Shown here one piece after another: positions 9,445-62,843 of a DNA stretch of 64,000 nucleotides. The notes beneath the pieces were generated by a model. The model saw only the letters and a list, made by a program, of their open reading frames with translations. It made no database searches and was not told the origin of the DNA. The position numbers and the translations under genes were made by a program. How positions within the stretch are numbered: position 1 is the stretch's first letter; each line of letters starts with the position of its first letter. Origin of the DNA: a virus; the IMG/VR virus record IMGVR_UViG_3300045988_101367, positions 11,047-75,046 of that record; one strand, given 5' to 3'.

Positions 9445-9445
9445 G

Positions 9446-15725: not shown

Positions 15726-15730
15726 CACAT

Positions 15731-15811: not shown

Positions 15812-15825
15812 CTAACATTAAAAGA

Positions 15826-16185: not shown

Positions 16186-16240
16186 GTTTCCATAATAATG
16201 TGTTAACGTTTTACTAGTTTTCCGATATAAACTAGTACTT

Positions 16241-16324: not shown

Positions 16325-16406
16325 CAAATTTAATTTGATATATTGTTAGTGTGTTTGGATAAATCCTGTATTAGTACGTTACCACTATTCTCCTTTATAG
16401 AAATGT

Positions 16407-16462
16407 AGGCTATAGCTCAAAAGGTTAGAGCACCCCGAGATTGTGGTTCGATTCCACATATC
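16407..16462 (+). tRNA. tRNA-like remnant (D-arm-like plus T-arm TGTGG-TTCGATT-CCACA, no anticodon arm)
   Basis: Only about 56 nt of tRNA-like sequence; no acceptor pairing found. Confidence 0.2.
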
Positions 16463-16469
16463 TCCCTAT

Positions 16470-16545
16470 ATACGGATGCCTGAGTGGTCGAAAGGGTAGG
16501 TCTCCAAAACCTATAGAGACGAAAGTTGAACAACTACTCCGTGTG
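16470..16545 (+). tRNA. tRNA-like gene with anticodon arm TAGGT-CTCCAAA-ACCTA (anticodon CCA); T-arm not canonical
   Basis: Acceptor ATACGGA/TCCGTGT pairs and the D region GAGTGGTCGAAAGGG is class-II-like, but the 3' part lacks a TTCGAAT-type T-arm. Confidence 0.3.
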
Positions 16546-16565
16546 CAAAATAAGATTATAAATTA

Positions 16566-16639
16566 GCTTTCTAAGCTTTAAGGTGAAGTACGAAACTTTT
16601 AATTTCGGGAAGACAGGTCAGTACTGTCAGGGAGCACCA
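16566..16639 (+). tRNA. tRNA-Lys(TTT), CCA encoded
   Basis: Acceptor GCTTTCT/AGGGAGC (two G-U), anticodon arm CGAAA-CTTTTAA-TTTCG, T-arm GACAG-GTCAGTA-CTGTC, 3' ACCA. Confidence 0.6.
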
Positions 16640-16680
16640 TTAATTTTTAATTTATTAAAAGTATTCATTTGTAATACACG

Positions 16681-16710
16681 AGATTCTCAGTCTGTGAAGA
16701 TAGAGAATCT
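16681..16710 (+). promoter_or_regulatory. hairpin with conserved loop gtctgtgaagata (copy 1)
   Basis: agattctc-AGTCTGTGAAGATA-gagaatct; a second hairpin with the same loop lies at 16861-16890. Both precede tRNA genes. Confidence 0.4.
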
Positions 16711-16714
16711 ACTT

Positions 16715-16787
16715 GGCACTATCGTCTAGCTGGTTAGGACGGGATTCTTTCAAGATCCAAAGGCGATCTCGAGCATCGCTAGTGCTA
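16715..16787 (+). tRNA. tRNA-Glu(TTC)
   Basis: Acceptor GGCACTA/TAGTGCT, anticodon arm GGATT-CTTTCAA-GATCC, T-arm GCGAT-CTCGAGC-ATCGC. Confidence 0.65.
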
Positions 16788-16860
16788 CTCTTCCATATTT
16801 AAAAAACTAATACAATTAATATTTAAAATATAAAGTCAGCGAACGTTAAAGAGTTGTTAG

Positions 16861-16890
16861 GCTTCTTGTCTGTGAAGATAGGAAGCTTTA
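16861..16890 (+). promoter_or_regulatory. hairpin with conserved loop gtctgtgaagata (copy 2)
   Basis: gcttctt-GTCTGTGAAGATA-ggaagc. Confidence 0.4.
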
Positions 16891-16892
16891 TT

Positions 16893-16964
16893 GGAGAAAT
16901 GACTGAGTGGTCCACCCTGCTAAGGTGTTAGTCATGCTCGAAGGTTCGAATCCTTCTTTCTCCG
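16893..16964 (+). tRNA. tRNA, atypical; candidate anticodon GCT (Ser)
   Basis: Acceptor GGAGAAA/TTTCTCC and T-arm GAAGG-TTCGAAT-CCTTC are perfect. The D and anticodon regions fold only as CACC-CTGCTAA-GGTG. Confidence 0.4.
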
Positions 16965-17020
16965 CTTTATACATACTTGTAATTATAAAATATGGTTCGT
17001 GAGAATAGTATTTTATTCTT

Positions 17021-17092
17021 GGGATATTGGTGTAACGACAGTCACGTTGGGATTTGACCCCAAAAGAAGAGGTTTGACTCCTCTATATCCTT
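17021..17092 (+). tRNA. tRNA-Gln(TTG)
   Basis: Acceptor GGGATAT/ATATCCT, anticodon arm TTGGG-ATTTGAC-CCCAA, T-arm AGAGG-TTTGACT-CCTCT. A gagaata...tattctt hairpin lies upstream. Confidence 0.65.
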
Positions 17093-17106
17093 CTAATTTT
17101 AACAAT

Positions 17107-17780
17107 ATGAAATATGATTGGTCAAAAGAAAGAATTGAATCAGTTATTGCAGACTGCGATTCATTATCTTAGGTATTAGAAACATACCTAGAGCAGGTAA
17201 TAATACTGCTACATTAAGAAAGAAATTAGAGGAATTTAACATAGATTATTCACATTTTACTTATGGAGCAAAAGGTAAAAAAGGAATTGAAAATTATGTT
17301 CCAGTAAAAGAATATTTAGGTACTGGAAAATACATTCAAACTACCAAATTAAAAGAAAAGTTAATTAAAGAAGGTCTTAAAAAGAATGAATGTGAAAATC
17401 CTAAGTGTCCTTGTAAGAATGGATATTGGTTAGACAATCCTTTGATATGCTAACTACATCATATTAACGGCAATAATAGAGATAATAGATTAGAAAATTT
17501 ACAGATGTTGTGCCCAAATTGCCATTCACAAACAGATAATTATTGTGGACAAGCTGCAAAATATTTCTGTGGTGCAAAAAAGAAGACAAAAGCTGCACGA
17601 TATTGTCCTAAATGTGCAGCCAAAATGGCACAAAAAGTAGATTTACCAACTAAAGATGATCTTATAAATAAATTTAAAGAACTAAAATCTTTTGTTGCTG
17701 TAGGTCAATTTTATAAGGTATCAGATAACACCGTTAGAAAATGGTGTAAGAAATACCATATACTAAAAAAGAATTAGTAT
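17107..17780 (+). pseudogene. HNH endonuclease, disrupted (frame change plus internal TAA)
   Basis: C-terminal frame carries CPCKNGYWLDNPLIC-(TAA)-LHHINGNNRDNRLENLQMLCPNCH, a classic HNH motif. The N-terminal MKYDWSKERIESVIADCDSL... frame is offset by one and itself contains a TAG. Confidence 0.5.
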
Positions 17781-17812
17781 TATTCTTAAAAGATTTTAAC
17801 TAAGAATTTTAA

Positions 17813-17850
17813 GTGGACTGTCAGCCCCAGTTCGAATCTGGGTAGCCCAA
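17813..17850 (+). tRNA. tRNA 3'-half fragment (T-arm CCCAG-TTCGAAT-CTGGG plus acceptor strand TAGCCCA)
   Basis: No matching 5' acceptor strand, D-arm or anticodon arm upstream. Confidence 0.3.
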
Positions 17851-18038
17851 CAACTGAAATAGGTACTAAACAACTCTCAGTAACTCTATTAAATAGCGTA
17901 ATTACCTTAAAATTAATCATTTGGGTTAAAAAGAGAAAGAACGTTAGATAGCTGAGGACAATGGAATAGTTTAAATATAACCAGTGAATATCGCCTATTA
18001 TTTAAATAGATTATTAACACATTAATTATAGATAAATT

Positions 18039-18428
18039 ATGACAAGACAAGATTATTTTATTAGTAAAACCAATTTAATAGCACAAATAGAAAGTGCTAA
18101 GAAATTTGGTTGTAAACATGTACTCAAGTGTGCAAAGTTAAACTTAGCTGAACTTGAAAAGAAATACAAAAAAGAACATCTTTCTAATCCTCTGTTCAGT
18201 TACATGGTAACTGATGAAGAACTGGACGAACTTATTAGAAATGATGAAAAGCCTACATTTAAAATCAAAGTAACTTTTAAAAGTGGAGAAGCTTATGATT
18301 TAATGTTTTATCATGAACTTAAAAGTGGAGTTAAACATTCTGATGTTGTGAAATGGGCGATGATAGGATTAACTAAAACTATTCATCATCCTGAAAATAT
18401 TGTAAATGCTCGTTTTATTATGGGTTAA
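18039..18428 (+). CDS. hypothetical protein (129 aa)
   Basis: Track ORF. Confidence 0.4.
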   Translation: MTRQDYFISKTNLIAQIESAKKFGCKHVLKCAKLNLAELEKKYKKEHLSNPLFSYMVTDEELDELIRNDEKPTFKIKVTFKSGEAYDLMFYHELKSGVKHSDVVKWAMIGLTKTIHHPENIVNARFIMG

Positions 18429-18433
18429 GAGAT

Positions 18434-18793
18434 ATGGAAATAAAAACAATACAGATTGACTCTGATACATTTTTAGTGTTTAAGGGACGAGAGTACAGAC
18501 AGATAAACATAAATGACATTGTATGTATAAAAACATCTGGTAAATATAGTACTATAATAGATGTTCATGGCAATAGTATTATTGTGTGTTGTTCATTAAA
18601 AAATATTTCACGTGTTTTATGTATTAATTTTATTCTTGCAACACAAGGATTTTTAATAAATCATAAATACATATCTGAGATAACTAGAAAGAATGATGAA
18701 AACAATACATATATCTTAAAATTAAATGATGATATTCATACAACTGTGGATATTTCATTACATATAGCTACAAACATGTTAAAACAATTGTAA
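18434..18793 (+). CDS. hypothetical protein (119 aa)
   Basis: Track ORF. Confidence 0.4.
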   Translation: MEIKTIQIDSDTFLVFKGREYRQININDIVCIKTSGKYSTIIDVHGNSIIVCCSLKNISRVLCINFILATQGFLINHKYISEITRKNDENNTYILKLNDDIHTTVDISLHIATNMLKQL

Positions 18794-18825
18794 TACCATA
18801 ATAATTTAAGGTTTATAAAATAAAT

Positions 18826-18858
18826 ATTGTTGGCAACTAGCAGATAATTAGTTGCTCC
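18826..18858 (+). promoter_or_regulatory. conserved hairpin element upstream of a tRNA (copy 2)
   Basis: attgttGGCAACTAgcagataatTAGTTGCtc; near-identical to 15620-15650. Confidence 0.4.
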
Positions 18859-18860
18859 TT

Positions 18861-18943
18861 GGCTCAGTATCCGAATTGGTATAGGAGATGGTCTTAAACA
18901 CCATTGGACATGTGTCCGTACGGGTTCGAGTCCCGTCTGAGCT
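18861..18943 (+). tRNA. tRNA-Leu(TAA), class II
   Basis: Acceptor GGCTCAG/CTGAGCT, anticodon arm ATGGT-CTTAAAC-ACCAT, long variable arm GGAC-ATGT-GTCC, T-arm ACGGG-TTCGAGT-CCCGT. Confidence 0.65.
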
Positions 18944-19029
18944 AGAATAGCAAATGAGAAACCTCCACGTGGTGCTATTCGGATAACGCTAATTCTCATA
19001 AAATTAATATAGTTCAGATTATAAGCTAA

Positions 19030-19134
19030 TTAAATATGGCGGAATTGGTATACGGCAGTAGATTGACGGAAGCGCCTCTAAAGTCGTCGTTAAATATTTC
19101 TTGAGGATTAAAGGTTCGAATCCTTTTGTTTAAG
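19030..19134 (+). tRNA. tRNA-like element (~105 nt) with canonical T-arm AAAGG-TTCGAAT-CCTTT but unresolved body
   Basis: AT-only acceptor pairing TTAAATA/TGTTTAA. It contains a CTCTAAA loop identical to the suppressor tRNA anticodon loop, but I could not fold a stem around it. Confidence 0.2.
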
Positions 19135-19268
19135 TTAGCTTGTCTGAACTACATAATTGATTATTTATTATGTTTTGAAAAATTAAAATCATTCATAATT
19201 ACTATGAATTTGTGAAAATTTATAAGTAATGTAAAATTTTCGTTTTGTAAAAGATTTTATCTTTTTTT

Positions 19269-19305
19269 AAACTCATACTGCTTGCGAAAGTAGTATGAGT
19301 TTTTA
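19269..19305 (+). terminator. hairpin terminator with conserved loop (gcttgcgaaagt)
   Basis: aaactcatact-gcttgcgaaagt-agtatgagttt followed by ttttaaat. A related hairpin with the same loop core (aagagct-ttgcttgtgaaagtag-agctctt) lies at 19565-19595. Confidence 0.5.
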
Positions 19306-19451
19306 AATAAGGCTATATAGCAATACTAGTATAAAAGCATGTCCAGATGCTTAATCCCTAGAATAGGCTGTCTGATTCAATATGGCGGCACATAGTCAAC
19401 TAACTAGGCAAAGCGTTTAATAAAAACAAATGCTCTTACTGAATTGTAATG

Positions 19452-19523
19452 AAATGTGTAGCTCAGTGGTTAGAGCATCTATCGTTGAGTAGAAGGTTGG
19501 CAGTTCAAATCTGTCCACATTTC
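19452..19523 (+). tRNA. tRNA with atypical anticodon arm (possible 8-nt loop)
   Basis: Acceptor AAATGTG/CACATTT perfect, D-arm GCTC-AGTGGTTA-GAGC, T-arm GGCAG-TTCAAAT-CTGTC. The anticodon region folds as TCTA-TCGTTGAG-TAGA. Confidence 0.4.
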
Positions 19524-19719
19524 CTTTTTCTATCATTATTTTAATTTTTAATTTATTAAAAATAAAAGAGCTTTGCTTGTGAAAGTAGAGCTCTTATCAA
19601 AATTATGCGAAAACTTTAATAAGTCGGAGGACTTACAAAAACTCAAAAACAGTGTGTCTTAGTTGCAACGTTCTCTTGACTGAGAAAGGAGAGGATTAAC
19701 GACCCTCAGACACATCTTC

Positions 19720-19792
19720 GGGCTTGTAGTTCAATCGGTTAAAACGGGAGACTCATAATCTCTTATTCTCGGTTCAATCCCGGGCGAGCCCA
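19720..19792 (+). tRNA. tRNA-Met(CAT) (elongator or Ile-lysidine type; 1-72 pair is G-C)
   Basis: Acceptor GGGCTTG/CGAGCCC, anticodon arm GGAGA-CTCATAA-TCTCT, T-arm CTCGG-TTCAATC-CCGGG. Confidence 0.6.
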
Positions 19793-19941
19793 CTATTTCT
19801 TTTATTATATTATTCTATTTTAAAAAGTCTAATTAGTTAATCTAGTTAGGCTCTTTTTTGTTTAATTAAATAGCACATTAACATATAGATTTTACAAATG
19901 AAATAAACACTCTTGAATCTGAGAAGCTCAGATTAGAGGAA

Positions 19942-26051: not shown

Positions 26052-26261
26052 ATGAATAAACTTTGGATATTACCAACAATTTGTTTTATAATTGTTTTAG
26101 CTTGGTCAGTTCCTAGCTACTATTATCAGAAAGCAAAAATTCTGGAATTGCAAATAATTGTAGATAGACAGTCAAACGCTATTCAGCAACTTGAAAGAGA
26201 AAAGAATAATATTGAAGTAACTATTCCTCAGTATTTAGATAGTTTGCCTGGTGGTGATTAA
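26052..26261 (+). CDS. small membrane-anchored protein (69 aa)
   Basis: Hydrophobic N-terminus LWILPTICFIIVLAW. Confidence 0.4.
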   Translation: MNKLWILPTICFIIVLAWSVPSYYYQKAKILELQIIVDRQSNAIQQLEREKNNIEVTIPQYLDSLPGGD

Positions 26262-26277
26262 TTAAATATTTAAAAAT

Positions 26278-26622
26278 ATGTATTTAGAAGGAGATAAATG
26301 GAAAAATTGGCACACTAGATGTTCTGATGCTGCCATTAAAGAGAACAAAAGTGAAGAAGATACTAAACTAAGTACTATATCAGTGTCTAAATTACTTGAG
26401 TATGCACATACTGCATTGCATCATTGTGAGATTAATAATTTAGACCCTTATAAAGTCCCAGTATTTCTTACACTAGATCATAATGAGAACTTGTATTCTT
26501 ATGTAGGATTATCTATATGTAGTAGTAGTCAGTTGGGAACTTATGTAACTTTAGGTTCTTCAGATTATTATAAAATGTTCTATGTTGCTCCAGATTCTAA
26601 ACCTGAAGTTGGTGAATATTGA
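26278..26622 (+). CDS. hypothetical protein (114 aa)
   Basis: Track ORF. Confidence 0.4.
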   Translation: MYLEGDKWKNWHTRCSDAAIKENKSEEDTKLSTISVSKLLEYAHTALHHCEINNLDPYKVPVFLTLDHNENLYSYVGLSICSSSQLGTYVTLGSSDYYKMFYVAPDSKPEVGEY

Positions 26623-27321: not shown

Positions 27322-27654
27322 GGGGCATTCGTGGTTTTGATTGTATAGGAGATAAGAAACACAGCAAGACAGTTGGAGAGACAACAAAACAATAATCGCT
27401 AGAGTTATCAATATGACTCCTGTTTCTTACGCTATTGCAGCCTAAGAAACCGAGCAGCACTTGCTTGGGAACGGAAAGGTGCATTATTCTTTTATTTCTT
27501 TATTAGTTCTCTGTATACTTTAGGAACAGAGTGGTGGAAGTTGGCAATGTTAATCTTGTCAACCCTAACAGACAAGGATAGTCTTTAAAACCTATGCTGT
27601 AAGAACGTTTTGATGCAAATATGCAAGACTGGAGTTCGACTCTCCAATGCTCCA
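27322..27654 (+). ncRNA. ssrA: tmRNA (SsrA-like) candidate
   Basis: 5' GGGGCAT pairs with 3' ATGCTCC (one G-U), giving a tRNA-like acceptor with discriminator A. 3' T-arm TGGAG-TTCGACT-CTCCA. Internal tag-like reading frame ...aat atg act cct gtt tct tac gct att gca gcc TAA (…SYAIAA*) resembles the ...YALAA tmRNA tag ending. No protein ORF in the region. Confidence 0.55.
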
Positions 27655-27688
27655 CTAGTTCATAGAACTATTTTATTATTTGTTTTTA

Positions 27689-28699: not shown

Positions 28700-28966
28700 A
28701 TGGGTAAACAAATTTGGTTGCAAGATGGCAACGTTTTTAGTCAGGGTAGTGCGACAACAGTATCTCATCCTGAAGGATTACCGAAAGGTATTTATGAAGT
28801 AAAAGTCTCAATGACTGGATTTTACTTAAGTAAAATCGCTGAGTCTTTTACGTTTGATTACAAACTGTATGGTCTAAACCAAAAATTTATTAATTATGTC
28901 TTAAAGACATATGATAACACTACAGGTAATTTAGGTGTTCTGTTAGACGGAATCAAAGGAACTGGT
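28700..28966 (+). CDS. AAA+ ATPase, exon 1 (ends in Walker A ...LLDGIKGTG)
   Basis: The ORF terminates right after GIKGTGKI. Joining ...ggt (28966) to exon 2 aaa aca gtt... restores the GxxxxGKT Walker A. Confidence 0.5.
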
Positions 28967-30277
28967 AAAATTTAAGCAAATTCAGTAAGCTTAAATTTTT
29001 AAAAATTTTATATTTATTTGGATTTAATAAAATTTCATATATATTATAATAATATTAATTTTAACTATATGAATATGAAATTTGTAATTAATGAAGAATT
29101 AGGAGAAAAAATTAAAACTTTGTACTTAATAGATGGATTAAGTTGTACTAAGATTGGTAAAGAGGTTGGAATTTCTACTTCTACTATAAGTTCATTTCTA
29201 AAAAGAAATGGAATTGAAGTAGTTAATAAACAAAACAAATTATTATTTGATCTAGATAAAGATATTATTCCTAAATATAAGCAAGGGATAAGTTTATCTA
29301 AATTAGCTAAAGAGTATCATACTTCTATCCAAACTTTGTCTAGAAAATTAAAAGCTAAAGGGATTGAAATAATCAATCATCAAAATGAAACTAAATTTAA
29401 TGAACATATCTTCGATGTTATAGATACCGAGGAGAAGGCTTATTGGTTAGGATTTATATTTGCTGATGGTTATATTTCATCAAGAGATAACGGTTTTGAA
29501 CTATCTTTAAAAGGCTCTGATATTGAACACTTACATAAATTTAATAAGTTTATGGAGCATAATAAAGATAATGTCAAATTAGGGGAAGTTAAGAATAAAG
29601 ATAAAACTTTTTTAAGATGTCGCTGGGGAATAGTCAATAAGCACTTATGGAATACTCTAAATAATTTAGGATGTATTCCAAGAAAAAGTTTAACTCTTCA
29701 ATTTCCTAATATTTCTGAAGAATTAAAAATTCCTTTTATTAGAGGATACTTTGACGGAGATGGTTGTCTAAGTTATTATTAGAGAGCTAAAATTTTACCA
29801 AAAGTTTCATTTCTAGGAACTGAGCAATTTTTAGTAAAGATACAATCAATATTAAATAATTTTAATATAAAAAGTTCTTTAGTAAAAGATGCGCGAATGG
29901 AAAATACTCTAGTATTAAATGTATCTTCAACAAATTCTTTAGATTTTTTAGACTTAGTATATAGTAATAGTTCCATTTATTTAGACAGAAAATATAAAAG
30001 ATATAAAATTTTTAAAACTTGCCGTTCTAAACAGGAATGTTTAGAATTATTAGCGGGTGAAAACGGAGAAGGCTGTGATGCTAATTCCGTGGTAAATGAA
30101 GATAGTAACGAATCTTCATCACTGTAACGCGTAGAAGTTGAAACTCTTATAAGAGAATATAATACTTCCAAGAGCACCCGCTCTCCCAATCATTTGAATG
30201 GAGAAAAAGGTACGCTGAGCTATAACAAACAAGAAGTTATAGAAATATAGATAAAAAGCTATATGATAACAATACTG
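28967..30277 (+). mobile_element. group I-like self-splicing intron carrying a LAGLIDADG homing-endonuclease ORF; approximate boundaries
   Basis: It splits an ATPase gene between Walker A and Walker B. The 5' exon ends in U and the intron ends in G (…atactg|aaaacag). Its 3' ~230 nt and first ~20 nt are homologous to the ORF-less intron at 60123-60374. Confidence 0.5.
29018..30127 (+). CDS. LAGLIDADG homing endonuclease (two motifs) with N-terminal HTH repeats; needs readthrough of TAG 29780-29782
   Basis: AYWLGFIFADGYIS and IRGYFDGDGCLSYY are the two LAGLIDADG motifs. The track ORF stops at TAG immediately after motif 2, yet the same frame continues (…(Q)RAKILPKVSFLGTE(Q)FLVKIQSILNNFNIKSSLVKDARMENTLVLNV…) to TAA 30125-30127, as expected for a full-length enzyme. 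Confidence 0.6.
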
Positions 30278-31165
30278 AAAACAGTTACCGCAAAGGAACT
30301 TTGTAATCATTTACAGCTTCCTGTGATCTTAGTACAATCAATGGGTGTTGATACTAATAGTAAATTAATAAAATATTTATCTACCTCTATTGATTTTGAC
30401 TGTATCTTCTTCTTTGATGAATATGAGAAAGAATTTAAAAATTCTTCAGATGTTCTTTCTTTCATGGATGGTACTTATAACTCTATTTATCGTAAGGTAT
30501 TTTTACTTACTACTAATGAGTTAAATGTAGACCCAGATCTTCTTGGTAGACCTTCTAGAATAAGATATAAAAAGTCTTTCAGTAATCTTTCTGAGGAAGT
30601 TACTAGAGAGATTCTTAATGATATCTTGGAAGATAAAACTGCTATAGAAAAGGTTATAGAGCTAACTCATTCTATGAATATTATTACTATAGACTTAATT
30701 AAAGCTATAGCAACTGAAATTAATATTCATGGAGTAGAAGCTCTTCCTGATATTAAAGAAACCTTTAATATTGAATTCTCTAGGTTTACTTATTTGTATA
30801 GAGAAGTACAAATCAGACATTGTGACTTGAAATTTACTCCTGAAAATATAAAGAATATATTAAAAGCTTTTTATAAGTTTAAAGAAATTAAAAAGAAAGA
30901 TTGGAAGAAACATACTCGTGAAGAAAGCAAATTCTATAACGAATGGTCTACTAAGTTCAATGAGGATTATGGTTCCACTACTGAGGATAAAGAGTTAAAA
31001 TATCTGGAACCTGGAGATTATTTTGAGGATGATCGTATATTGATGGTAAGTATTAAAGAAAAATATGTAGTAACTATGACTGATTATGGGAATATTAGAA
31101 TATATATAATTAATAGTTGCTATTCTACAAGTAAAGCTACAGGTCTTGTAAATTACGAATTATAA
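30278..31165 (+). CDS. AAA+ ATPase, exon 2 (Walker B FFFDEYE, sensor LLTTN, Arg-finger-like RPSR)
   Basis: KTVTAKELCNHLQLPVILVQSMGV…CIFFFDEYE…VFLLTTNE…LLGRPSRIRY; the track ORF 30263-31165 begins inside the intron 3' end. Confidence 0.5.
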   Translation, partial: KTVTAKELCNHLQLPVILVQSMGVDTNSKLIKYLSTSIDFDCIFFFDEYEKEFKNSSDVLSFMDGTYNSIYRKVFLLTTNELNVDPDLLGRPSRIRYKKSFSNLSEEVTREILNDILEDKTAIEKVIELTHSMNIITIDLIKAIATEINIHGVEALPDIKETFNIEFSRFTYLYREVQIRHCDLKFTPENIKNILKAFYKFKEIKKKDWKKHTREESKFYNEWSTKFNEDYGSTTEDKELKYLEPGDYFEDDRILMVSIKEKYVVTMTDYGNIRIYIINSCYSTSKATGLVNYEL

Positions 31166-36089: not shown

Positions 36090-36170
36090 GTCTAGATAAC
36101 CAAGTGGTCAACGGCAGCAAGCTGTTAACTTGCCCCGAAAGGTTCCTAGGTTCGAATCTTAGTCTAGACG
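36090..36170 (+). tRNA. tRNA-Asn(GTT) with unusually long variable arm
   Basis: Acceptor GTCTAGA/TCTAGAC perfect, anticodon arm GCAAG-CTGTTAA-CTTGC, ~12-nt variable region, T-arm CTAGG-TTCGAAT-CTTAG. A palindrome gtcctgattaatcaggac precedes it. Confidence 0.5.
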
Positions 36171-36241
36171 CAATAATATATGCCTCTTATTTCTAAGGTT
36201 AGCTACCTTCTCGAAAAGAAATGTGTACACAAGAGGCGCCT

Positions 36242-36318
36242 GGAGTATTAAGCCCTGTTGGTAAGGGAACTAGACTGTCATTCTAGTAAAACTAAGGGTT
36301 CGAATCCCTTATATTCCG
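36242..36318 (+). tRNA. tRNA-Asp(GTC)
   Basis: Acceptor GGAGTAT/ATATTCC, anticodon arm CTAGA-CTGTCAT-TCTAG, T-arm AAGGG-TTCGAAT-CCCTT. Confidence 0.6.
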
Positions 36319-36343
36319 CAACTAATTAAAAAAAATAAATAAT

Positions 36344-36820
36344 ATGAAAAAAACTTTTAATTATCAATCTGATGCAAATTTTTATGATAAAAAGGATTTT
36401 ATTATAGCTACTTTAAAAAGAAAAATAAATAGTTTTAAAGAGTATGATGCTGAAAGAAAAAAGCATTATGCGGGACTAGAACAAAAAATCGGAGAGTTAG
36501 AATCTTATATAGATGAATTAGAAAATGGATCGACTATAGCTTCCTTAAATAATAAGATTCAGTCTTTAGAAAATGAGATTGAGAAACAGAATCTTAAAAT
36601 TAGAGAGTTAAGAGCTAAAGTTAATATATCTTTATTTGATAATACTAAGTCTTTTAGAGAATTGGAATCTATAGCAAATAATTTGAAAGACTTTAATAGC
36701 ATGAAATTAGCTATTAAAGCTCTCAAAAAACATCTTAAAGATAATAAAAAAACTATATCTGATTTAGTATATGAATTAACACAAGCTAAACTTAAAATAA
36801 AACAATTAACTGGAGAGTAA
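36344..36820 (+). CDS. hypothetical coiled-coil protein (158 aa)
   Basis: Track ORF, followed by ggaga-gtaa-tctcc hairpin terminator (36800-36830). Confidence 0.45.
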   Translation: MKKTFNYQSDANFYDKKDFIIATLKRKINSFKEYDAERKKHYAGLEQKIGELESYIDELENGSTIASLNNKIQSLENEIEKQNLKIRELRAKVNISLFDNTKSFRELESIANNLKDFNSMKLAIKALKKHLKDNKKTISDLVYELTQAKLKIKQLTGE

Positions 36821-36830
36821 TCTCCAATTT

Positions 36831-36904
36831 GGGCTCGTAGTTCAGTTGGCTAGAACGCTACTTTTGCAAGGTAGATGTCGTGGGTTCGAGTCCCACCGTG
36901 GTCC
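36831..36904 (+). tRNA. tRNA-Ala(TGC)-like with mismatched acceptor stem (possible pseudogene)
   Basis: D-arm GTTC-AGTTGGCTA-GAAC, anticodon arm CTACT-TTTGCAA-GGTAG, T-arm GTGGG-TTCGAGT-CCCAC. The 3' strand CGTGGTC does not complement the 5' GGGCTCG (2-3 mismatches). Confidence 0.4.
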
Positions 36905-36923
36905 ACTATTAAATTAAATATTT

Positions 36924-37262
36924 ATGAAAATAACTATTGATACAGACAATTTAGAAACATTAAAGTATAAAACTGAAGATGTTCCTATTTTAATGAAGAC
37001 TTTCCAACAATTAATAAATAAATTAATGTATGAAGTAATAGGGAATTATTATTCTGTAGACAATGTTCCTGAAGATGCTCCAAAATGGGTAAAAGAAGAA
37101 CTACTTAATGTAGGAAAAACCTGTTATATGGATGGGCATATGAATAAAGAATATGTCTTTAAAGGTATTCAAGAAACATTTGAGGATTATTATTATATAT
37201 TAGAAGATAATAATAAAAAAATTTCTTATTCTTCATGCGTTGGAAAGATATCTTATAAATAA
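36924..37262 (+). CDS. hypothetical protein (112 aa)
   Basis: Track ORF. Confidence 0.4.
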   Translation: MKITIDTDNLETLKYKTEDVPILMKTFQQLINKLMYEVIGNYYSVDNVPEDAPKWVKEELLNVGKTCYMDGHMNKEYVFKGIQETFEDYYYILEDNNKKISYSSCVGKISYK

Positions 37263-37264
37263 AT

Positions 37265-37342
37265 GCAAGATTAGTGTAGCTGAAGGCGCATATCTGGCTT
37301 CCAACCAGAAGGCTTGCGTGGGTTTGATTCCCACATCTTGCA
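37265..37342 (+). tRNA. tRNA-Gly(TCC)
   Basis: Acceptor GCAAGAT/ATCTTGC perfect, anticodon arm TCTGG-CTTCCAA-CCAGA, T-arm GTGGG-TTTGATT-CCCAC. Variable region is longer than usual. Confidence 0.55.
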
Positions 37343-37436
37343 CTATGATAAAGCTCTAGAATACTAGTTACAGGAGCAACGTAACTTATAGGGTGCCTCT
37401 CAACGATGCATACTCGCCTATTAGGTGTCGTAGAAC

Positions 37437-40797: not shown

Positions 40798-40896
40798 ACT
40801 TAGTTTGTTTGAAATTAATAAAGCGAATCTTAACTCATAAGTATTATGTTGCTAAATATTGCTTTCAAATAGGATTATATTGGCAAGGTATTACTC

Positions 40897-41196
40897 ATGA
40901 TTTGTCTAAATTTAGTTTTACAGAATTTTCAAGAGCTATTAAGTATTGGGATACATTCCTTAGATAATGGAGAAATTCCTGCTAAAATGCCTAAAAAATA
41001 TGTTCTAGAACTTATATGTGATTATTTAGCAGCAGCTAAAACATATGGAGCTGACCCTAGAAGAGAATATACATGGTGGCTTAAACAACAGCCTCATATG
41101 AAAATCCACAAAAAAACTAAGAGTTATATAACTGAAGTGTTTTATAAATATAGTATAGGTTTAACATTAAAAGAATCAATTAATGGAAATTATTAA
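40897..41196 (+). CDS. hypothetical protein (99 aa)
   Basis: Track ORF. Confidence 0.35.
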   Translation: MICLNLVLQNFQELLSIGIHSLDNGEIPAKMPKKYVLELICDYLAAAKTYGADPRREYTWWLKQQPHMKIHKKTKSYITEVFYKYSIGLTLKESINGNY

Positions 41197-42473
41197 TGCA
41201 ACTGATGGCTACAAGCTTGGTCATCATCGTATGTACCCAGAGGGTACACAAATGGTCTATAGTAATTGGACTCCTAGAAGTAATCGTTACTTCCCAGAAG
41301 CTACAGAAGGTTCTGTAGTATTTGGTATTCAGTACTTTGTAAAGAAGTATTTGATAGAGGAATTTAACAAATGGTTTGCTCTTCCTAAGGAAGAAGCTAT
41401 TAAGCAATTTGCTTATCGTGTAGGCAACTTTGTAGACCTTAATCAGGTTGGAACAAAACATATTGAAGAACTTTATGATTTGGGGTATCTTCCTATTGAA
41501 ATTAAAGCTCTTCCTGAAGGTTCTATCTGCCCTATAAGAGTGCCTATGATGACTATTAAGAACACTCTTCCTGATTTCTTCTGGTTGACTAATTACTTGG
41601 AAACTTTAATTAGTTGTACTCTATGGCTCCCTTGTACTTCTGCAACAAGTGCTCGTCTTTATAAGAAGAGACTTATAGAACATGCTAGAAAGACTGGATT
41701 CCCAGAGGAAGTAAATCTAGGTTTCTCTTGTCACGATTTCTCAATGAGAGGTATGGCAGGACTTGATGCTGCTATTATCTCTGGTATGGCTCATATGACT
41801 TCATTCTGTGGTAGTGAAACAATTCCTGCTATTGAAGCAGTAGAACATTATTACAATGCAAATGTTACTGAAGAACTTGTAGCTGCAACTGTTCCGGCTT
41901 CAGAACATTCAGTAATGTGCGCAGGAGGTGAGGATGGTGAGATTGAAACATACCGCCGTCTTATTAATGACCTATATCCAACAGGTATTATCTCAATAGT
42001 ATCTGATACTTGGGATTTTTGGCAGGTAGTTGAGAAATTCTTGCCTAAGCTTAAGGCAGATATTATGAAACGTGTTGGTCGAGTAGTAATTCGTCCTGAT
42101 AGTGGTGATCCAGTAGACATTATTTGTGGTCTTCGTACAAATCCTCACTATCATACTGCTATGAAAGAAGGTAAGTATTACTGTGATTTTAATCCATTTA
42201 TGGACGATGATGAAAATCATTATGTAGAAGTATCTGAAGGTCAGTACTATGGAGCATATTATATGCTAGGAAAAATCTTTGGATGGAATACTACTGTAAA
42301 TGACTATCGTTATCCAAGTACCAAGGTTGGATTACTTTATGGAGATTCTATTACTCTGGAGCGTCAGCGTGATATCTATGCTAGATTGGAAAACGCTCAT
42401 ATGGCAGCTTGTAATCTTGTTCTAGGTATTGGATCTTATACTTATCAGTTTAAGAGTAGGGATTCACTTGGCT
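41183..42473 (+). CDS. nicotinamide phosphoribosyltransferase-like enzyme (NAMPT family; Namat-type candidate), exon 1
   Basis: N-terminus MEIINATDGYKLGHHRMYPEGTQMVYSNWTPRS matches the NAMPT start (…[23 protein letters not shown]…). The frame stops 7 codons after ...SRDSLG inside the intron. Confidence 0.65.
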
Positions 42474-42686
42474 TAACTGCGAGGCCCTTTATATAGTAAT
42501 GTATATCGAATAACCGGAAGAATTGCTGGGAAGAGTTTGTTAATTCTTAATCAGCAGCCGAGCCACAGGGAAGACTGAGGAAGGTTCAGAGACTAAGGAC
42601 ACTACGGTGAGCCTACAGCCTCCGGAATCCCTAAATATAGGGATTATGATATAGTCCATAAAAATTAACATAATTTAGCTTTTATG
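42474..42686 (+). mobile_element. group I self-splicing intron (IA2-like core, no ORF), 213 nt
   Basis: Contains P (ccggaagaattgctgggaagag), Q (aatcagcagcc), R (ggttcagagactaa) and S (gatatagtcc) consensus-like elements. 5' exon ...cttggcU can pair with gaGGCC (P1 with U-G at the splice site). Intron ends in G before tcgcag...; splicing restores the NAMPT C-terminus in frame. Confidence 0.65.
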
Positions 42687-42949
42687 TCGCAGTAAAAGCA
42701 ACTGCTTGTATAATTAATGGAAAGCTTATAGAAATCTATAAGCATCCAAAGACTGATGATGGAACAAAGAACTCTCTCAAAGGTCTTATTAGAATTGAAG
42801 AAGAGAATGGTAAGTATGTCGCTTATGACCAGCAGACTAAGGATGCAGAACTGCAAGGTTGTCTTAAAACAGTCTTTGTAGATGGAGAATTAGTAAGAGA
42901 ATATTCTCTTTCTGAGATTCGTGAACGTGTAAATTCAACATTAGTATGA
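42687..42949 (+). CDS. NAMPT-family enzyme, exon 2 (C-terminal 87 aa)
   Basis: …FAVKATACIINGKLIEIYKHPKTDDGTKNSLKGLIRIE…CLKTVFVDGELVREYSLSEIRERV aligns with the NAMPT C-terminus (…[29 protein letters not shown]…[21 protein letters not shown]). Confidence 0.6.
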
Positions 42950-48921: not shown

Positions 48922-50188
48922 AGGAGAACTATTTCATAAAATCACTAGAGATGAACGACAAGAAGAGTGTCGTAGAAAATGGATAAAAAATCGTTGTGTG
49001 GGGACAATAGTCGCATCTACTGGATTTGGTAAGAGCAGAATAGGACTAAACTGTATTAAAACAGTGCTAAAACACTTTCCACAATATCGAGTACTAATAA
49101 TTGTACCAACAGAAACTTTACAAAAACAATGGTGTGGTCATATAGATTCTAATGGGCTAGGATTAAGTTGTGATGTACAAATAATAAACACTGTAATAAA
49201 ACATCCTGCCAAATATGATCTTTTAGTACTGGATGAAGCGCATAGATATGCAGCTGAGACTTTTGTAAGATTATTTGAAGTAGTAAAATACCAATTTATC
49301 TTAGGTCTTACAGCTACTTTTGAGCGTCTTGATGGTAGAGATAAAATATTAGCAAAATACTGTCCAGTAATTGATACTATTGATATTAATACTTGTCTTG
49401 CAAATGGTTGGGTTAGCCCATATAAAGAATATCTAGTCTTAGTAAATGTTGATGATTTAGAAGAATATGAAAAAATAAATAAAGAATTCATTTCTCATTT
49501 TGAATTCTTCGGATTCTCTTGGGAGTTAGTTAATAAATTAGCCGGTCCTATGGGTTGGCGAAATAAACTACTCCTAAGAGATTCTATGTGTAGTGATCCT
49601 AATAAAAAGTCTGAAGTATTACAAAGTATAAATTATCATGCTATCAGATTTTGGTCTACTATGCATGAGAAAAAAGCTTTCATAAATAATCATCCAAAGA
49701 AAATTGAAATAGTAAAGAAAATTATAGAAGCTAGAAAGGATAAAAAAATAATAACTTTTGCTAATAATATTAAAATGGCAGAAAAAATTCCTAATGCTAC
49801 TGTATATTCTAGTAGAACTTCTAAGAAAAGAAGTGCTACAGCTATTGAAGATTTTAACTCTGGAAAGATAACTTTATTATCTACAGTAAAAAAAGCTGAT
49901 GAAGGACTTGATGTAAAAGGTCTTTCTGTAGCTATTATATTTGGATTAGATAGTTCAACTACTAGAGCTTGTCAACGGAGAGGAAGATCAATCCGCTTTG
50001 AGAAAGGTAAGACAGCAGAGATATTCAATATAGTATTAAATAGGACTCAAGAGACCAAGTGGTTTTATGATTCTCATAAGAGAGATTCTTTTATAACTAT
50101 AGACGAATCAGAATTGGATAAAGTATTACAAGGTAAAGACTTTACCCCAGGTGAAAAGATAGTTCCTAAATTTGATTTTAGATTCTGA
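48899..50188 (+). CDS. superfamily-2 DEAD/DEAH-box helicase
   Basis: Walker A-like TGFGKSRIG, motif II LVLDEAHRY, SAT-like TAT, and C-terminal helicase motifs (QRRGRSIR). Confidence 0.65.
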   Translation: MATNSLIEGELFHKITRDERQEECRRKWIKNRCVGTIVASTGFGKSRIGLNCIKTVLKHFPQYRVLIIVPTETLQKQWCGHIDSNGLGLSCDVQIINTVIKHPAKYDLLVLDEAHRYAAETFVRLFEVVKYQFILGLTATFERLDGRDKILAKYCPVIDTIDINTCLANGWVSPYKEYLVLVNVDDLEEYEKINKEFISHFEFFGFSWELVNKLAGPMGWRNKLLLRDSMCSDPNKKSEVLQSINYHAIRFWSTMHEKKAFINNHPKKIEIVKKIIEARKDKKIITFANNIKMAEKIPNATVYSSRTSKKRSATAIEDFNSGKITLLSTVKKADEGLDVKGLSVAIIFGLDSSTTRACQRRGRSIRFEKGKTAEIFNIVLNRTQETKWFYDSHKRDSFITIDESELDKVLQGKDFTPGEKIVPKFDFRF

Positions 50189-58880: not shown

Positions 58881-60122
58881 ATGAAACAAGCAACAAAATC
58901 TTCTTATATTAAGTTCTTTAATGATGCAATTAATAATAATCGTTCTTTAAAAGCTCAGTGTACTATATCAGGAAAAAATATAAATACTGTATATATTACA
59001 ATGAGAAATCTTAGAAAGAAAGAAAATAAAGATGAAGATGACAAGAAGATATTGGAATTATATGATAGACTAAAGGATACTAAGAAAAAAGAAGTAAAGA
59101 AAGATACAGATGATGCTTCTAATACTTGGGAAATAAGAGACGAGGAGACTGGTAAAATTACTGGATATAAGTTTGAGATTTTCAGAAGAAATAAGCCCGC
59201 AATCACAGGAGTCTTTACTAGAAACGAAATGAATAGTGTATATAGAATGTATACTTATTACGGTTCTGGTTTAACCCAGCAGATTGTCAGCAGATATTTC
59301 CCAGATTATTCTCTTATTGACTTTAAAAGAATTTTACGAGCTTTTAATATTACTAAAGCATCCTCTCCGTTTGCTCCTCATATGTATGAAGAATATACTG
59401 AGGATGAATTAAAAGAAATGCATCTTAGGGAAAAAGAGAATGATTTCTTAAAAAGAATAGAGAAAGATGAGGTAAAGGATTTAAGAGCTTTAGTTACTAA
59501 GTTAACTAAGGAAACCTCTAAGTCTTTAAATAAGGAACTTATAGAAGACACTATTAAAAATACAGTAAAGGATTATAAAGAGCTTCCAGTAAATATTAAT
59601 AATAAAGAAGCGAAATATCCTGATTTAATTATATGGTTATCTGATTTACATATCGGAGCTTATAATGCTAAATATAGTAGTTTTGTACAGTTACCTTCTT
59701 ATGATGTTCCAGAAATTAAATCTAGATTATCTAGAATTGTGGAATCTTTTGTGGGACAAGAATATCATTCTGTATATGTAGTTAATCTTGGAGATTCTAT
59801 TGATGGATTCAATAAAGAAACTACTAGAGGGGGTCATGAGCTTCCTGAGATTCTTGATAATAAAGAAATTAGTGAAGCATTTATAGAGTGTATGATGGAG
59901 TTCTTTGCTACTCTTACAGTAAAAGTAAAAAGTGAAGATTTTAATTATCTCTCTATAGGAGAATCTAATCATGGTGGGGATTTTGAATGGTTAAATCAAA
60001 AACTCTTAGCTGCATATTTAACTAAATATAATATTAAGAGTTATATTAGTAACTATCCTATTGATAATTTTATTATTGGAGATCATCAATTCCTGTATGC
60101 TCACGGTAGAGTTTTGCCGTAT
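58881..60122 (+). CDS. calcineurin-like metallophosphoesterase (Mre11/SbcD-like), exon 1
   Basis: Motifs IIWLSDLHIGA, NLGDSIDG, GESNHGG and GDHQFLYAHG, in the order expected for this family. The ORF ends a few codons later inside the intron. Confidence 0.5.
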
Positions 60123-60374
60123 ATTTGAGAAATCAAATATGTTAAAACAAACCAATATCGGTGAAGGCTGTGATGCTAATACCGAGATAACTACAGAAAC
60201 TAAAGAGTCTGTAGCATCGTAGAGCGTAGAACTTGAACCTGAGAAATCAGAATAAAATAGTTCCAAGAGTGGTTTGCCCTCAGCACGTAAAGGTGGAGGT
60301 GAATATGTACGCCGAGCTATAGTAAATAAGAAACTATAGAAATACAGATAAAAAGCTGTATGATAACAAAACTG
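60123..60374 (+). mobile_element. group I-like intron without ORF, homologous to intron 28967-30277; approximate boundaries
   Basis: ~230 nt share ~85% identity with 30050-30277 (e.g. gaaggctgtgatgctaat…, tacgccgagctatag…, tatagaaatacagataaaaagctgtatgataacaaaactg). The start atttgagaaatcaaata resembles atttaagcaaattcagta of the other intron. Confidence 0.5.
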
Positions 60375-60674
60375 AAAGATAATAATTCTCAGACTAGACA
60401 ATTTCCTCTTACTTTAAATCCTCAGACTGAATTATTCTTTGCTAATTATATAGCAGAAAAAGGTATATATAGTCCTCATATTTATGTAGTAAAAGGTGAT
60501 TTACATAATTATGCTTATACTACTGGTAAACGATTTGATTATATATCAGTAGGTAGTATGTATGGTAGTAGTAATTATATTACAGCTAATTTTGGATATA
60601 CTAAATGGAGTATTAATTATACTATTGTAAAAGATAAAGATATTTTGATGGGAACTATTAAAGGAAATAATTAA
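60375..60674 (+). CDS. metallophosphoesterase, exon 2 (…VVKGDLHNYAY… GHxH-like motif)
   Basis: The track ORF 60360-60674 begins within the intron 3' end. The frame matches exon 1 when spliced at …tat|…ctg|aaa gat. Confidence 0.45.
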   Translation, partial: KDNNSQTRQFPLTLNPQTELFFANYIAEKGIYSPHIYVVKGDLHNYAYTTGKRFDYISVGSMYGSSNYITANFGYTKWSINYTIVKDKDILMGTIKGNN

Positions 60675-60937
60675 TGAAGGACATAAGACTTCCAGAAACA
60701 TCCGATAAATCTATAGACATTTCTGCTATAGATACAAATACTGAAGGTATTATCTTAGCATACAAAGGTAATAAACCAATAGGATTTATTGGATATGACG
60801 ATGATAATAATGAGTGGGTATACTTAGATGATATTACTATAAACTGTAGTTACAAACGAGACGAAAATTTATTAGCTTTACTAAGAAACGTAATAGCTAG
60901 TAATTACGCCGATAGTTTTAAATTAGTTGATTTTTAA
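60674..60937 (+). CDS. small protein, paralog family member A (87 aa)
   Basis: …IDISAIDTNTEGIILAYKGNKPIGFIGYDDDNNEWVYLDDI… resembles 60941-61114 and 61832-62068. Confidence 0.4.
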   Translation: MKDIRLPETSDKSIDISAIDTNTEGIILAYKGNKPIGFIGYDDDNNEWVYLDDITINCSYKRDENLLALLRNVIASNYADSFKLVDF

Positions 60938-60940: not shown

Positions 60941-61114
60941 ATGAAATATATTACTATTCCTAAAAATAGTGAACACACTATAGACTTAGCAGCTATTACT
61001 GATGATTATAAAGGCATAATTATTGTTTACAAAGAAGGTATGGCTGTAGGAAGAATTTCATATTGCTCAGATACCGAGTTGTGGTATTTTTATGACAATA
61101 TAGATAATGCTTAA
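60941..61114 (+). CDS. small protein, paralog family member B (57 aa)
   Basis: MKYITIPKNSEHTIDLAAITDDYKGIIIVYKEGMAVGRISYCSDTELWYFYDNIDNA. Confidence 0.35.
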   Translation: MKYITIPKNSEHTIDLAAITDDYKGIIIVYKEGMAVGRISYCSDTELWYFYDNIDNA

Positions 61115-61838: not shown

Positions 61839-62068
61839 CTAATGAAATTACTAAAGATAACAAGACACTACTTATCTGCTATAAAAATTCATATCCCTGT
61901 GGGCAAATATTATACAACGGGAGTAAGTGGATATATATTACTAGTGTAGATATAAATAAAGTTAATTATGCGGAAGATACTCCCCATAATTTAGTACAAA
62001 AATTATTAGATAAAGAAATTATTGATAATATAATGTTTTTCACATACAATGGAGAGAATGCCAACTGA
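61832..62068 (+). CDS. small protein, paralog family member C (78 aa)
   Basis: …LICYKNSYPCGQILYNGSKWIYITSVDINKV…. Confidence 0.4.
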   Translation: MVTNEITKDNKTLLICYKNSYPCGQILYNGSKWIYITSVDINKVNYAEDTPHNLVQKLLDKEIIDNIMFFTYNGENAN

Positions 62069-62843
62069 ATTTACTTTAGAAGAAGTATTAAAAGGAAAAG
62101 CTACTAGTATTAAAGGTAAAGATTATCTTCCTACTAGAGGATATATTGAGCCTTTTCTAGAAAGAGTTCAAAAATTAACTTCTGATATTAGAGTACATGT
62201 AAAATTACCTGATCAAATCACTTATAATAAAAATGGTGACATAGATACTGCTGATTTAACTTTTAATAGAGTATGGTTGGAAGCAGTATTACCAAATGAA
62301 TATCAATATGCTAATCATCAGCAAGTAATTGGTATGGTATATGGTCTAGATACTAGAAAAGCTGTTGTAAAAATATACTCAGGTGCCGTAAATTCTGCTT
62401 GCACTAACCTTTGTGTGTTTAATCCAGACAGTTTAGTAGTTAATGAAATAGAACCCGAGACTCCTATTGACTTTAAGCCAATTACAAGACTTGTAGAGCA
62501 AACTACAGAGATAGGAGTTACTCTCAGACGTTTTGCAGATACAGATTTTGACTATACTAATAAAAGTTTTGTAAATGAACATTTGGGTAGATGGATTCGT
62601 AACTGTATGTCTGAATCTGTTGATAATGGTTTTGGTAAAGTAAAATTATCTACATCAACTCCTATTGATGCTTATAAATTATTATTTGATAAAAAAGATA
62701 GTCCATATCTTATATCAGATGATAACGCAAATATGTTTACTGTATATAATGCATTCACTCAAATTATAACTGATTCTATGAAAAAGGATATTATGAATCA
62801 GGTTGAGAAAACTTTACTAGTAAACAGCATTTTAACTTTGTAA
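62049..62843 (+). CDS. hypothetical protein (264 aa)
   Basis: Track ORF. Confidence 0.45.
   Translation: MERMPTEFTLEEVLKGKATSIKGKDYLPTRGYIEPFLERVQKLTSDIRVHVKLPDQITYNKNGDIDTADLTFNRVWLEAVLPNEYQYANHQQVIGMVYGLDTRKAVVKIYSGAVNSACTNLCVFNPDSLVVNEIEPETPIDFKPITRLVEQTTEIGVTLRRFADTDFDYTNKSFVNEHLGRWIRNCMSESVDNGFGKVKLSTSTPIDAYKLLFDKKDSPYLISDDNANMFTVYNAFTQIITDSMKKDIMNQVEKTLLVNSILTL

Follow-up and report, generated by a model that had tools for sequence, protein, structure and literature searches.

Among described systems, the group I introns of phage subgroup IA, such as those in td, nrdB and nrdD of T4, in the DNA polymerase gene of SPO1 and in orf142 of Staphylococcus phage Twort, are what we take to be the closest counterparts of the element analyzed here. 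In gut phages, the crAss-like Zeta and Delta groups combine genomes of 145-192 kb and suppressor tRNAs with a high density of group I introns and inteins (Yutin et al. 2021, PMC7886860). As their introns were located via the protein domains of the endonucleases, ORF-less copies lie outside that screen, and neither the RNA family nor its fold or choice of insertion sites is described there (PMC7886860). In the Jug jumbo phages, the splicing of many such introns was confirmed by metatranscriptomes (PMC12880540). At the protein level, inteins cluster in the coding sequence of the Walker A motif (P-loop) of replication and packaging ATPases (Novikova et al. 2016, PMC4760082).

Here we analyzed a stretch of 64,000 nt from a viral genome (IMG/VR record IMGVR_UViG_3300045988_101367), termed the window, which carries two related elements, intron A in an AAA ATPase gene and intron B in a phosphoesterase gene. 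Intron B is very probably an ORF-less group I intron at a His-Gly^Lys site, descended from a LAGLIDADG-containing intron at that site, and its predicted splicing would yield a protein of 508 residues.

A 267-nt in-phase insertion in a phosphoesterase gene

The interrupted gene consists of three parts:

58881-60107, + strand: exon 1 of the phosphoesterase gene, 409 codons ending in ...TAT GCT CAC GGT (Y-A-H-G), from the ORF list and the spliced translation
60108-60374, + strand: intron B, assigned to group I, no endonuclease ORF, from its exact absence in MT835492.1, the family alignment and covariation
60375-60674, + strand: exon 2 of the phosphoesterase gene, 99 codons plus stop, starting with AAA GAT (K-D) and including the motif GDLHN

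Exon 1 closes on the Gly codon GGT (60105-60107), the insert closes on G60374, and exon 2 opens with AAA at 60375, with the flanks ...TATGCTCACGGT in exon 1 and AAAGATAATAAT... in exon 2. The intron is thereby positioned between the codons of the invariant Gly409 and Lys410 (CAC GGT ^ AAA GAT). Its extent (60108-60374 of the window, + strand, 267 nt or 3 x 89, phase 0) was defined against the intron-less allele of MT835492.1, a 121.6-kb phage genome from human faeces that is ~96% identical to the window over 24.4-64 kb. The same gene of MT835492.1 reads ...CAC GGA AAA GAC... without the 267 nt (CACGGAAAAGACTCGAGAAATCAA), compared to ...CAC GGT, intron, AAA GAT... in the window. An earlier note on this DNA had set the left boundary at 60123, which is corrected to 60108 by the end of exon 1 and the intron-less allele; it had rightly seen that the host gene continues in frame directly after both intron A and intron B, which end in GATAACAANACTG.

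The spliced product of 508 residues is colinear with more than 500 uninterrupted homologues of ~500 residues, including one of 508 residues and 95% identity (P0001, from a cluster of 2076 member sequences). PHROG 284 ("exonuclease") and PHROG 22398 each give one continuous match across the exon junction, and the spliced reading frame is the uninterrupted gene of close and distant relatives. A protein of 392 residues (P0009, 98% identical) was considered as a second intron-bearing allele and rejected, as it is the intron-less gene with a shorter called start. On one matching contig (L019), the gene is called as three separate genes (415, 38 and 104 residues), where the annotation should be a single gene of 508 residues.

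The host protein has the motifs DLH, GDSID, NH, HG and GDLH, which are invariant in homologues. In 20 homologues the invariant residues D255/H257, G304-D305/D308, N363-H364, H408 and G450-D451/H453 match the metallophosphoesterase motif set DxH / GDxxD / NH / H / GDxH. Intron B sits right after the His-Gly of the fourth motif, and the residues His408-Gly409-Lys410 at the junction are invariant in the 20 homologues, down to 47% identity. The AlphaFold (AF2) model of the spliced protein has a pLDDT of 76.6. Structural similarity search against the PDB using Foldseek revealed, among the matches listed, Rv0805, the PolD DP1 exonuclease, polymerase B subunits, Vps29, GpdQ, LpxH and Mre11, the metallophosphoesterase matches having a probability of 1.00 and E-values down to 8.5e-7. 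The calcineurin-like metallophosphoesterase motifs and, in the predicted model, the alpha/beta sandwich fold are both present. The assignment of the host as a metallophosphoesterase-fold gene rests on the predicted-fold match, the motifs and the PHROG 284 annotation. Motifs and predicted fold thus agree with the earlier description of a metallophosphoesterase split in frame. At the sequence level, neither Pfam (searched with the spliced protein and the 20 homologues) nor the PDB (searched with a profile) returned a significant match.

A covarying group I core

No intron family of Rfam matched the whole window at the gathering score, or intron B, intron A and six relatives at a permissive E-value. 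In particular, the covariance model RF00028 (Intron_gpI) detected neither B nor A at the gathering score or at E <= 10, nor the six relatives at E <= 1. The structure was therefore derived by comparison. RNAalifold on an unbiased MAFFT alignment of 14 members yielded P2, P3, P4, P5, P6, P7.1, P8, P9 and P9.1, with compensatory changes in 48/59 pairs; P7, which crosses P3, was then added. The resulting structure with the pseudoknot has 65 pairs, with 97.5% of cells paired compared to 30-42% when the 3' partners were slid, and with changes on both sides in 50 of the 65 pairs; 0/500 shuffles reached the observed values. The single-sequence fold of B has a z-score of -3.64 and contains P1 in its centroid. 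Every helix is intact in copy B:

60103-60120, + strand: P1, exon ACGGU (60103-60107) and A60108 pairing with U60115 and the guide sequence GCCGU (60116-60120), read from the sequence and the centroid fold
60121-60140, + strand: P2 hairpin, AUAUUUGA-GAAA-UCAAAUAU, compensatory changes in 9/9 pairs
60148-60154, + strand: P3 5' strand CAAACCA, partner 60270-60276, covarying in 7/7 pairs, 99% of cells paired
60158-60185, + strand: P4 (60158-60163 with 60180-60185) and P5 (60166-60168 with 60175-60177), with A-rich J4/5 and J5/4
60186-60218, + strand: P6 (60186-60188 with 60216-60218) and P6a (60191-60197 with 60208-60214), covarying in 9/10 pairs
60222-60228, + strand: P7 5' strand, G60222, bulged A60223 and GCGUA (60224-60228), pairing with 60308-60313 as a pseudoknot with P3
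60229-60263, + strand: P7.1 extra hairpin (60229-60233 with 60259-60263; inner stem 60239-60242 with 60247-60250), 4/5 pairs covarying
60270-60276, + strand: P3 3' strand UGGUUUG, alignment helix 2
60278-60299, + strand: P8 hairpin, CCUC (60278-60281) with GAGG (60296-60299), alignment helix 7
60308-60313, + strand: P7 3' strand UACGCC, alignment helix 5
60317-60361, + strand: P9 (60317-60323 with 60333-60339) and P9.1 (60342-60347 with 60356-60361), 12/14 pairs covarying
60374, + strand: terminal G (omega-G) and 3' splice site, closing the family motif GAUAACAAAACUG

P1 presents the splice-site wobble U60107·G60116 and a 6-nt L1 loop. In all ten relatives with a definable 5' junction (10/10), the exon ends in U and pairs with its own guide sequence. 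P3 is CAAACCA/UGGUUUG in B, AGCGGGUG/CACCCGCU in A and CAGACCA/UGGUCUG in the MT835492.1 copy at 26219-26599. P4-P6 are 94-98% paired in the family alignment, and the P4-P5 segment is the most conserved part of the intron family. A P4-like pairing GAUGC/GCAUC was tried and dropped, as it fails in A and the covarying P4/P6 was preferred. P7 is 100% paired with two covarying pairs (132-254 as GC, AU or CG; 136-251 as GC or AU); alignment column 133 is a bulge (A or C), and the pair G134-C253 is invariant in 14/14 members. From this classical arrangement, the bulge and the invariant G-C pair (predicted as G60224-C60312 in B) are inferred to form the guanosine-binding site, with its function as a pocket. 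P8 in B, as read from the sequence, has only 4 bp, with a register off by one column relative to the MAFFT alignment. The inner stem of P7.1 is missing in some family members; this extra hairpin between P7 and P3' is reminiscent of subgroup IA. The terminal G is invariant in 14/14 members of the alignment and in 68/68 nhmmer hits reaching the model end. P10 in B is weak, with about 3 A-U pairs.

Altogether, B contains P1 with its U·G wobble, the P3-P8 core with the P3/P7 pseudoknot, the P7 bulge with its G-C pair and omega-G, and these defining features identify it as a group I intron. The missing Rfam match points to limits of the model, not to the absence of a group I fold.

Predicted splicing of intron B

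We propose that exogenous guanosine, bound in P7, would attack the phosphodiester after U60107, upon which the freed 3'-OH would attack after G60374 and the exons would be ligated to encode the 508-residue enzyme. The prediction is genetic in nature, as it draws on the exact intron-less allele and the colinear homologues.

Two other explanations were weighed for the interrupted gene. It might be a decayed relic, leaving the phosphoesterase as a pseudogene or as two polypeptides (415 residues ending in RVLPYI, and 104 residues from AUG 60360). The frame of exon 1 indeed meets a stop 21 nt inside the intron, an in-frame ATG (60360) lies 15 nt upstream of exon 2 and would in principle permit its separate translation, and the loss of the endonuclease puts the element beyond the invasive stage of the homing cycle. 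However, all core helices are intact and P1 fits the local exon; the identical allele is common among independent assemblies; the His-Gly-Lys at the junction is invariant in the protein family, so that a split there should be harmful; and the ATG merely belongs to the conserved P9.1/GAUAACA motif, most members being devoid of it. We consider decay quite unlikely. Still further down the scale, to the point of being negligible, is an assembly chimera in which a repeat-induced misjoin placed intron sequence into the gene. In its favour are the two related repeats of the genome, the UNVERIFIED flag on the relative MT835492.1 and the truncation of copy A in that record. Intron B is identical to no other sequence in the window, it interrupts the reading frame in exact phase, and its guide can pair with the local exon. 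Moreover, the exact exon 1 ORF with its intron-encoded tail (415 residues) is listed in 42 blocks of a public collection, and the intron-bearing allele was read in at least 21 independent contigs, one of them a human-gut contig of 144.6 kb in which the intron is identical. An artefact of this kind, which the earlier note had named as one outcome that would overturn it, is thereby excluded and effectively refuted.

Relation to intron A

The second element of the window resides in the Walker A motif of an ATPase:

28967-30277, + strand: intron A, 1311 nt, in the AAA ATPase gene (exons 28700-28966 and 30278-31165), inserted at GTG^KT of Walker A

The PF00004 match of the host ATPase spans the exon junction. 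Intron A has its LAGLIDADG ORF (29069-30127) in the P1 loop, from where the frame runs through P2-P6 to a stop in J6/7; the LAGLIDADG_3 match of this ORF (E 8e-11) spans an in-frame TAG. This single TAG at 29780 has homology on both sides, and is either read by a phage suppressor tRNA or a recent nonsense mutation.

Intron B is homologous to the 3' core of intron A. The two had been described as the same intron at ~85% identity, which is too high. The pairwise alignment suggested in the earlier note confirmed the homology at 64.8-74.7% identity, with 73.5% over 219 nt by blastn (60159-60374 against 30064-30277, E 3e-30), 74.7% (168/225) by global alignment over the coordinates of that note, and 64.8% from the internal guide sequence to the last G. 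Thus B is, as noted, ORF-less and homologous to an endonuclease-containing intron, but at ~65-75% identity it is not the same intron. They share the guide sequence GCCGU, and a comparison of their exon flanks, which had been proposed in search of a shared recognition site, revealed only GGT^AAA (6 nt) in common.

Probable loss of the endonuclease at the B site

In two pig-gut contigs (L015 and L016), whose phosphoesterase is 61% identical, the site CAC GGT ^ AAA GAT holds an intron with a 351-residue LAGLIDADG ORF in the P1 loop. The L015 core equals that of B in length (263 nt) and is its closest relative (88.2% identical), followed by an ORF-less intron in a DnaB-like gene of MT835492.1 (86.7%). 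A LAGLIDADG-containing intron also occupies the same His-Gly^Lys site in another orthologue (IMG/VR contig L090). Endonuclease ORFs are present in intron A and in the same-site introns of L015 and L090, while the ORF list of B shows nothing beyond a remnant of 27 codons. The C-terminal codons of the L015 endonuclease (FCRIFEKSNMLKQTNIGEGCDA.TEITTE.KESVAS*) persist in B: the ORF ends in ...YFCRIFEKSNMLKQTNIGEGCDADTEITTEIKESVAS in L015 and is retained as EFCRIFEKSNMLKQTNIGEGCDANTEITTETKESVAS in B, with the stop in J6/7. The same-site LAGLIDADG introns together with these retained codons support the loss of the endonuclease, and this part of the earlier note is well founded.

In nearly all close members, the frame of the endonuclease stays open across the guide sequence and P2-P6 up to a stop in the conserved J6/7 GUA(A/G), which indicates that ORF and ribozyme are anciently interlocked. 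The 381-nt copy of MT835492.1 (26219-26599), as read from the sequence, keeps remnant codons (IYLDRKYEKFIYF) of a partly deleted ORF, which argues for repeated ORF deletion in the family.

Accounts of the origin of B differ in where the intron came from and in which state was ancestral. The earlier note implied that intron A recently transposed within this genome into the phosphoesterase gene, where the copy lost its endonuclease. We find such a jump very unlikely: the copies are homologous, both at GGT^AAA and with a common guide, yet their identity is only 65-75%, the endonuclease of the B-site intron shares only 42% identity with that of A, and the exon flanks match over only 6 nt. Moreover, B is 88% identical to the same-site endonuclease-containing intron in a phage with a host protein only 61% identical, which implies that the B site was occupied long ago. 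Alternatively, the ORF-less form might be ancestral at the site, the LAGLIDADG gene having later entered the P1 loop in the pig-gut and other lineages. Free-standing endonuclease genes can invade introns, and the L1 of B is a clean 6-nt loop. Nevertheless, the ancient interlocking of ORF and ribozyme, the exact open frame and stop codon kept in B, and the intermediate partial deletion at 26219-26599 of MT835492.1 make this order of events unlikely. We thus regard intron B as a probable ORF-deleted derivative of an intron native to the phosphoesterase site, not a recent copy of A.

In the course of events that we propose, B would stem from the LAGLIDADG-containing intron that related gut phages have at this very position, and deletion of the endonuclease ORF from its P1 loop would have left the 6-nt loop. 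Of the ORF, only about the last 35 codons survive, because they overlap the ribozyme elements P2-P6. Further spread of B would now require recombination, or an endonuclease supplied in trans by a co-infecting phage.

Intron gain and loss among close phages

Between the window and MT835492.1, intron B is present in the window only, and two other family members are present in MT835492.1 only, at sites that are empty in the window:

49028-49033 (break between 49030 and 49031), + strand: empty site GGT^AAG, GFG^KS in Walker A of an SF2 helicase, holding a 1217-nt ORF-containing member in MT835492.1
51022-51027 (break between 51024 and 51025), + strand: empty site GGT^AAA, GQG^KS in Walker A of a DnaB-like helicase, holding a 381-nt ORF-less member in MT835492.1

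The reciprocal difference of two 96%-identical genomes at three intron sites indicates that intron mobility is recent. The earlier claim of recent mobility accordingly stands for the absence of B from MT835492.1, but not for the A/B pair itself as a recent spread, given its identity of ~65-75%. Compared to the intron-less allele, the first 30 nt of exon 2 are identical at 21/30 positions and the next 270 nt at 265/270, and in those first 30 nt the window is slightly nearer to the distant intron-bearing L015. This low-identity patch 3' of B looks like a co-conversion tract.

Among gut phages, the B site exists without an intron, with an endonuclease-containing intron and with an ORF-less one, as the homing cycle predicts. 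Three such states at one site among closely related, abundant human-gut phages provide a natural system for the study of intron gain and loss.

Two further variants were observed in MT835492.1. At 5972-5975 (L008; corresponding to window 30168-30298), its intron A is devoid of 131 nt between two ACTT repeats. Missing with them are the downstream half of the ribozyme core, the 3' splice site and 21 nt at the start of exon 2. Unless this UNVERIFIED record is misassembled here, the AAA ATPase gene would be inactivated. At 61934-62099 (L009 11951-12105) lies a truncated 5' half of an A-like core, ~97% identical to A over ~125 nt and followed by unrelated sequence.

A widespread intron family and its insertion sites

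A blastn search of phage genomes located the element, with identities of 67-80%, in phages of Clostridioides, Streptococcus, Staphylococcus, Mammaliicoccus and Arcanobacterium, in the crAss-like phages cr6_1 and cr118_1, in Prevotella phage Lak-A1 and in Bacillus phage PJN02. The family consensus matches 108 records, and the 3' domain pattern at least 120 IMG/VR stretches. The nhmmer score of B against the family model is 211.7. Its membership of this very widespread family of phage introns is well supported, and B is otherwise ordinary within it.

An automated search for 5' splice sites by 4-5 nt of guide complementarity turns up many sites by chance, and the count was restricted to junctions that a protein motif or the annotation confirmed. 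In 11 members both junctions were definable, and nine of these (9/11) are inserted between the Gly and Lys codons of Walker A, at GGT^AAR:

AAA ATPase (the window and cr6_1), SF2 and DnaB-like helicases (MT835492.1), RecD-like helicase (PJN02), helicase (cr118_1)
Terminase (TPWB06), the gene upstream of portal in phi116 (presumably terminase), and L049

Intron B is at the same hexanucleotide, but in a His-Gly-Lys motif that is not a P-loop, and the eleventh member is at GAT^AGA in a tape-measure gene. The guide sequence begins with 5'-GCC in 27/34 distinct full-length cores, which predicts exons ending in GGU. A Walker A preference of the whole family was considered and rejected, since the 3' exon starts with AAR in only 23/68 and other sites recur (AGAAGA of the tape-measure gene). 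Because of this count, the P-loop bias is limited to the closest relatives. Within the literature that could be searched, no paper describing P-loop clustering for phage group I introns was found.

It is possible, although we hold it doubtful, that the family is specialized for the Gly-Lys junction (GGT^AAR) of Walker A through the guide 5'-GCC and the LAGLIDADG enzymes, with ectopic moves between unrelated NTPase genes; intron B might then be a jump to a P-loop look-alike, to which the endonuclease adapted before it was lost. If so, the moves would have linked AAA ATPases, SF2, DnaB-like and RecD-like helicases and terminase in phages of Bacteroidota and Firmicutes, with the B target CAC GGT^AAA (His-Gly-Lys) lying in a non-NTPase enzyme and the whole family invisible to Rfam. 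The preference of the closest relatives for GGT^AAR in Walker A offers a testable clue to the way in which new genes acquire group I introns.

In Clostridioides phage pCD1602_4 (L007), two members (1946-2215 and 2460-2722) stand in tandem, ~500 nt apart at most. Their P1-P2 and P9-P9.1 are near-identical and their central cores differ, an arrangement that suggests recombination between intron copies.

Other features of the window

The + strand ORF block at 3437-8915 contains many in-frame TAG codons (for example, six in 3437-4252 and six in 6681-7823), with almost none elsewhere. A suppressor tRNA(CUA) (9445-9517, - strand) adjoins this block, and a tRNA with the anticodon UUA is encoded at 16241-16325 (+ strand). 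The distribution points to a putative TAG recoding confined to this one gene block. General recoding of TAA, for which the UUA tRNA and an in-frame TAA at 61113 had been considered, was rejected: each internal TAA sits at the end of a stop-free stretch, and long ORFs gained by reading through TAA are as numerous on the non-coding as on the coding strand. That TAA ends a 57-residue ORF (60941-61114), the frame of which goes on to 61200 with the C-terminus ...IADSFKLL, paralogous to that of the preceding gene 60674-60937 (...YADSFKLVDF). The segment 60941-61200 is either a nonsense-interrupted paralogue or a case of local read-through.

A 1.96-kb segment (40890-42852) that is missing from MT835492.1 encodes a 437-residue nicotinamide/nicotinate phosphoribosyltransferase (NAMPT_N and NAPRTase), an auxiliary NAD-salvage gene that is variable between near-identical phages. 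The window also encodes a tmRNA (27322-27655) with the tag peptide ARVINMTPVSYAIAA and, besides the suppressor tRNA(CUA), 12 tRNA genes in two clusters (15653-19793 and 36090-37343).

In relatives, the gene of the anaerobic ribonucleotide reductase NrdD lies ~2-2.2 kb downstream of phosphoesterase exon 2 (L015 6497-7227; L019 7061-7248). In the pig-gut relative L015, NrdD has an intein containing a LAGLIDADG domain, which shows that this group of phages harbours intervening elements of several kinds.

Comparison with known systems

Similar to the phage introns of subgroup IA, intron B is small and inserted in phase at a catalytic-motif codon of a phage protein gene. It shares with them the U·G wobble, the terminal G, the P3/P7 pseudoknot and the extra hairpin between P7 and P3', as well as an endonuclease ORF that is optional. 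Differences are found in the extra element, which is a single nested hairpin in the B family compared to the two helices P7.1 and P7.2 of subgroup IA, and in the location of the endonuclease ORF. In T4 introns this ORF lies in P6a or P9.1, whereas in the B family it lies in the P1 loop and overlaps P2-P6. Intron B, intron A and the six relatives searched have no detectable similarity to Rfam Intron_gpI at the sequence or covariance level.

Contigs related to the window are 120-190 kb long (one 204 kb) and have suppressor tRNAs, inteins and introns in an ATPase. They share the ecosystem and apparently the kind of genome with the crAss-like and Jug phages, a likeness by features and not a placement in the crAss-like order. 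A family member of crAss-like cr6_1 occupies the same ATPase Walker A site as intron A. As ORF-less introns escape both the endonuclease-domain screens and Rfam, the density of introns in gut phages is probably underestimated. Unlike the P-loop inteins, which act at the protein level, the present elements are RNA introns with a conserved guide 5'-GCC at GGT^AAR, and B lies in a His-Gly-Lys motif outside any P-loop. Overall, intron B is a known kind of element, to which the present analysis adds an RNA family model, the ORF-less state at a three-state site and the GGT^AAR lead.
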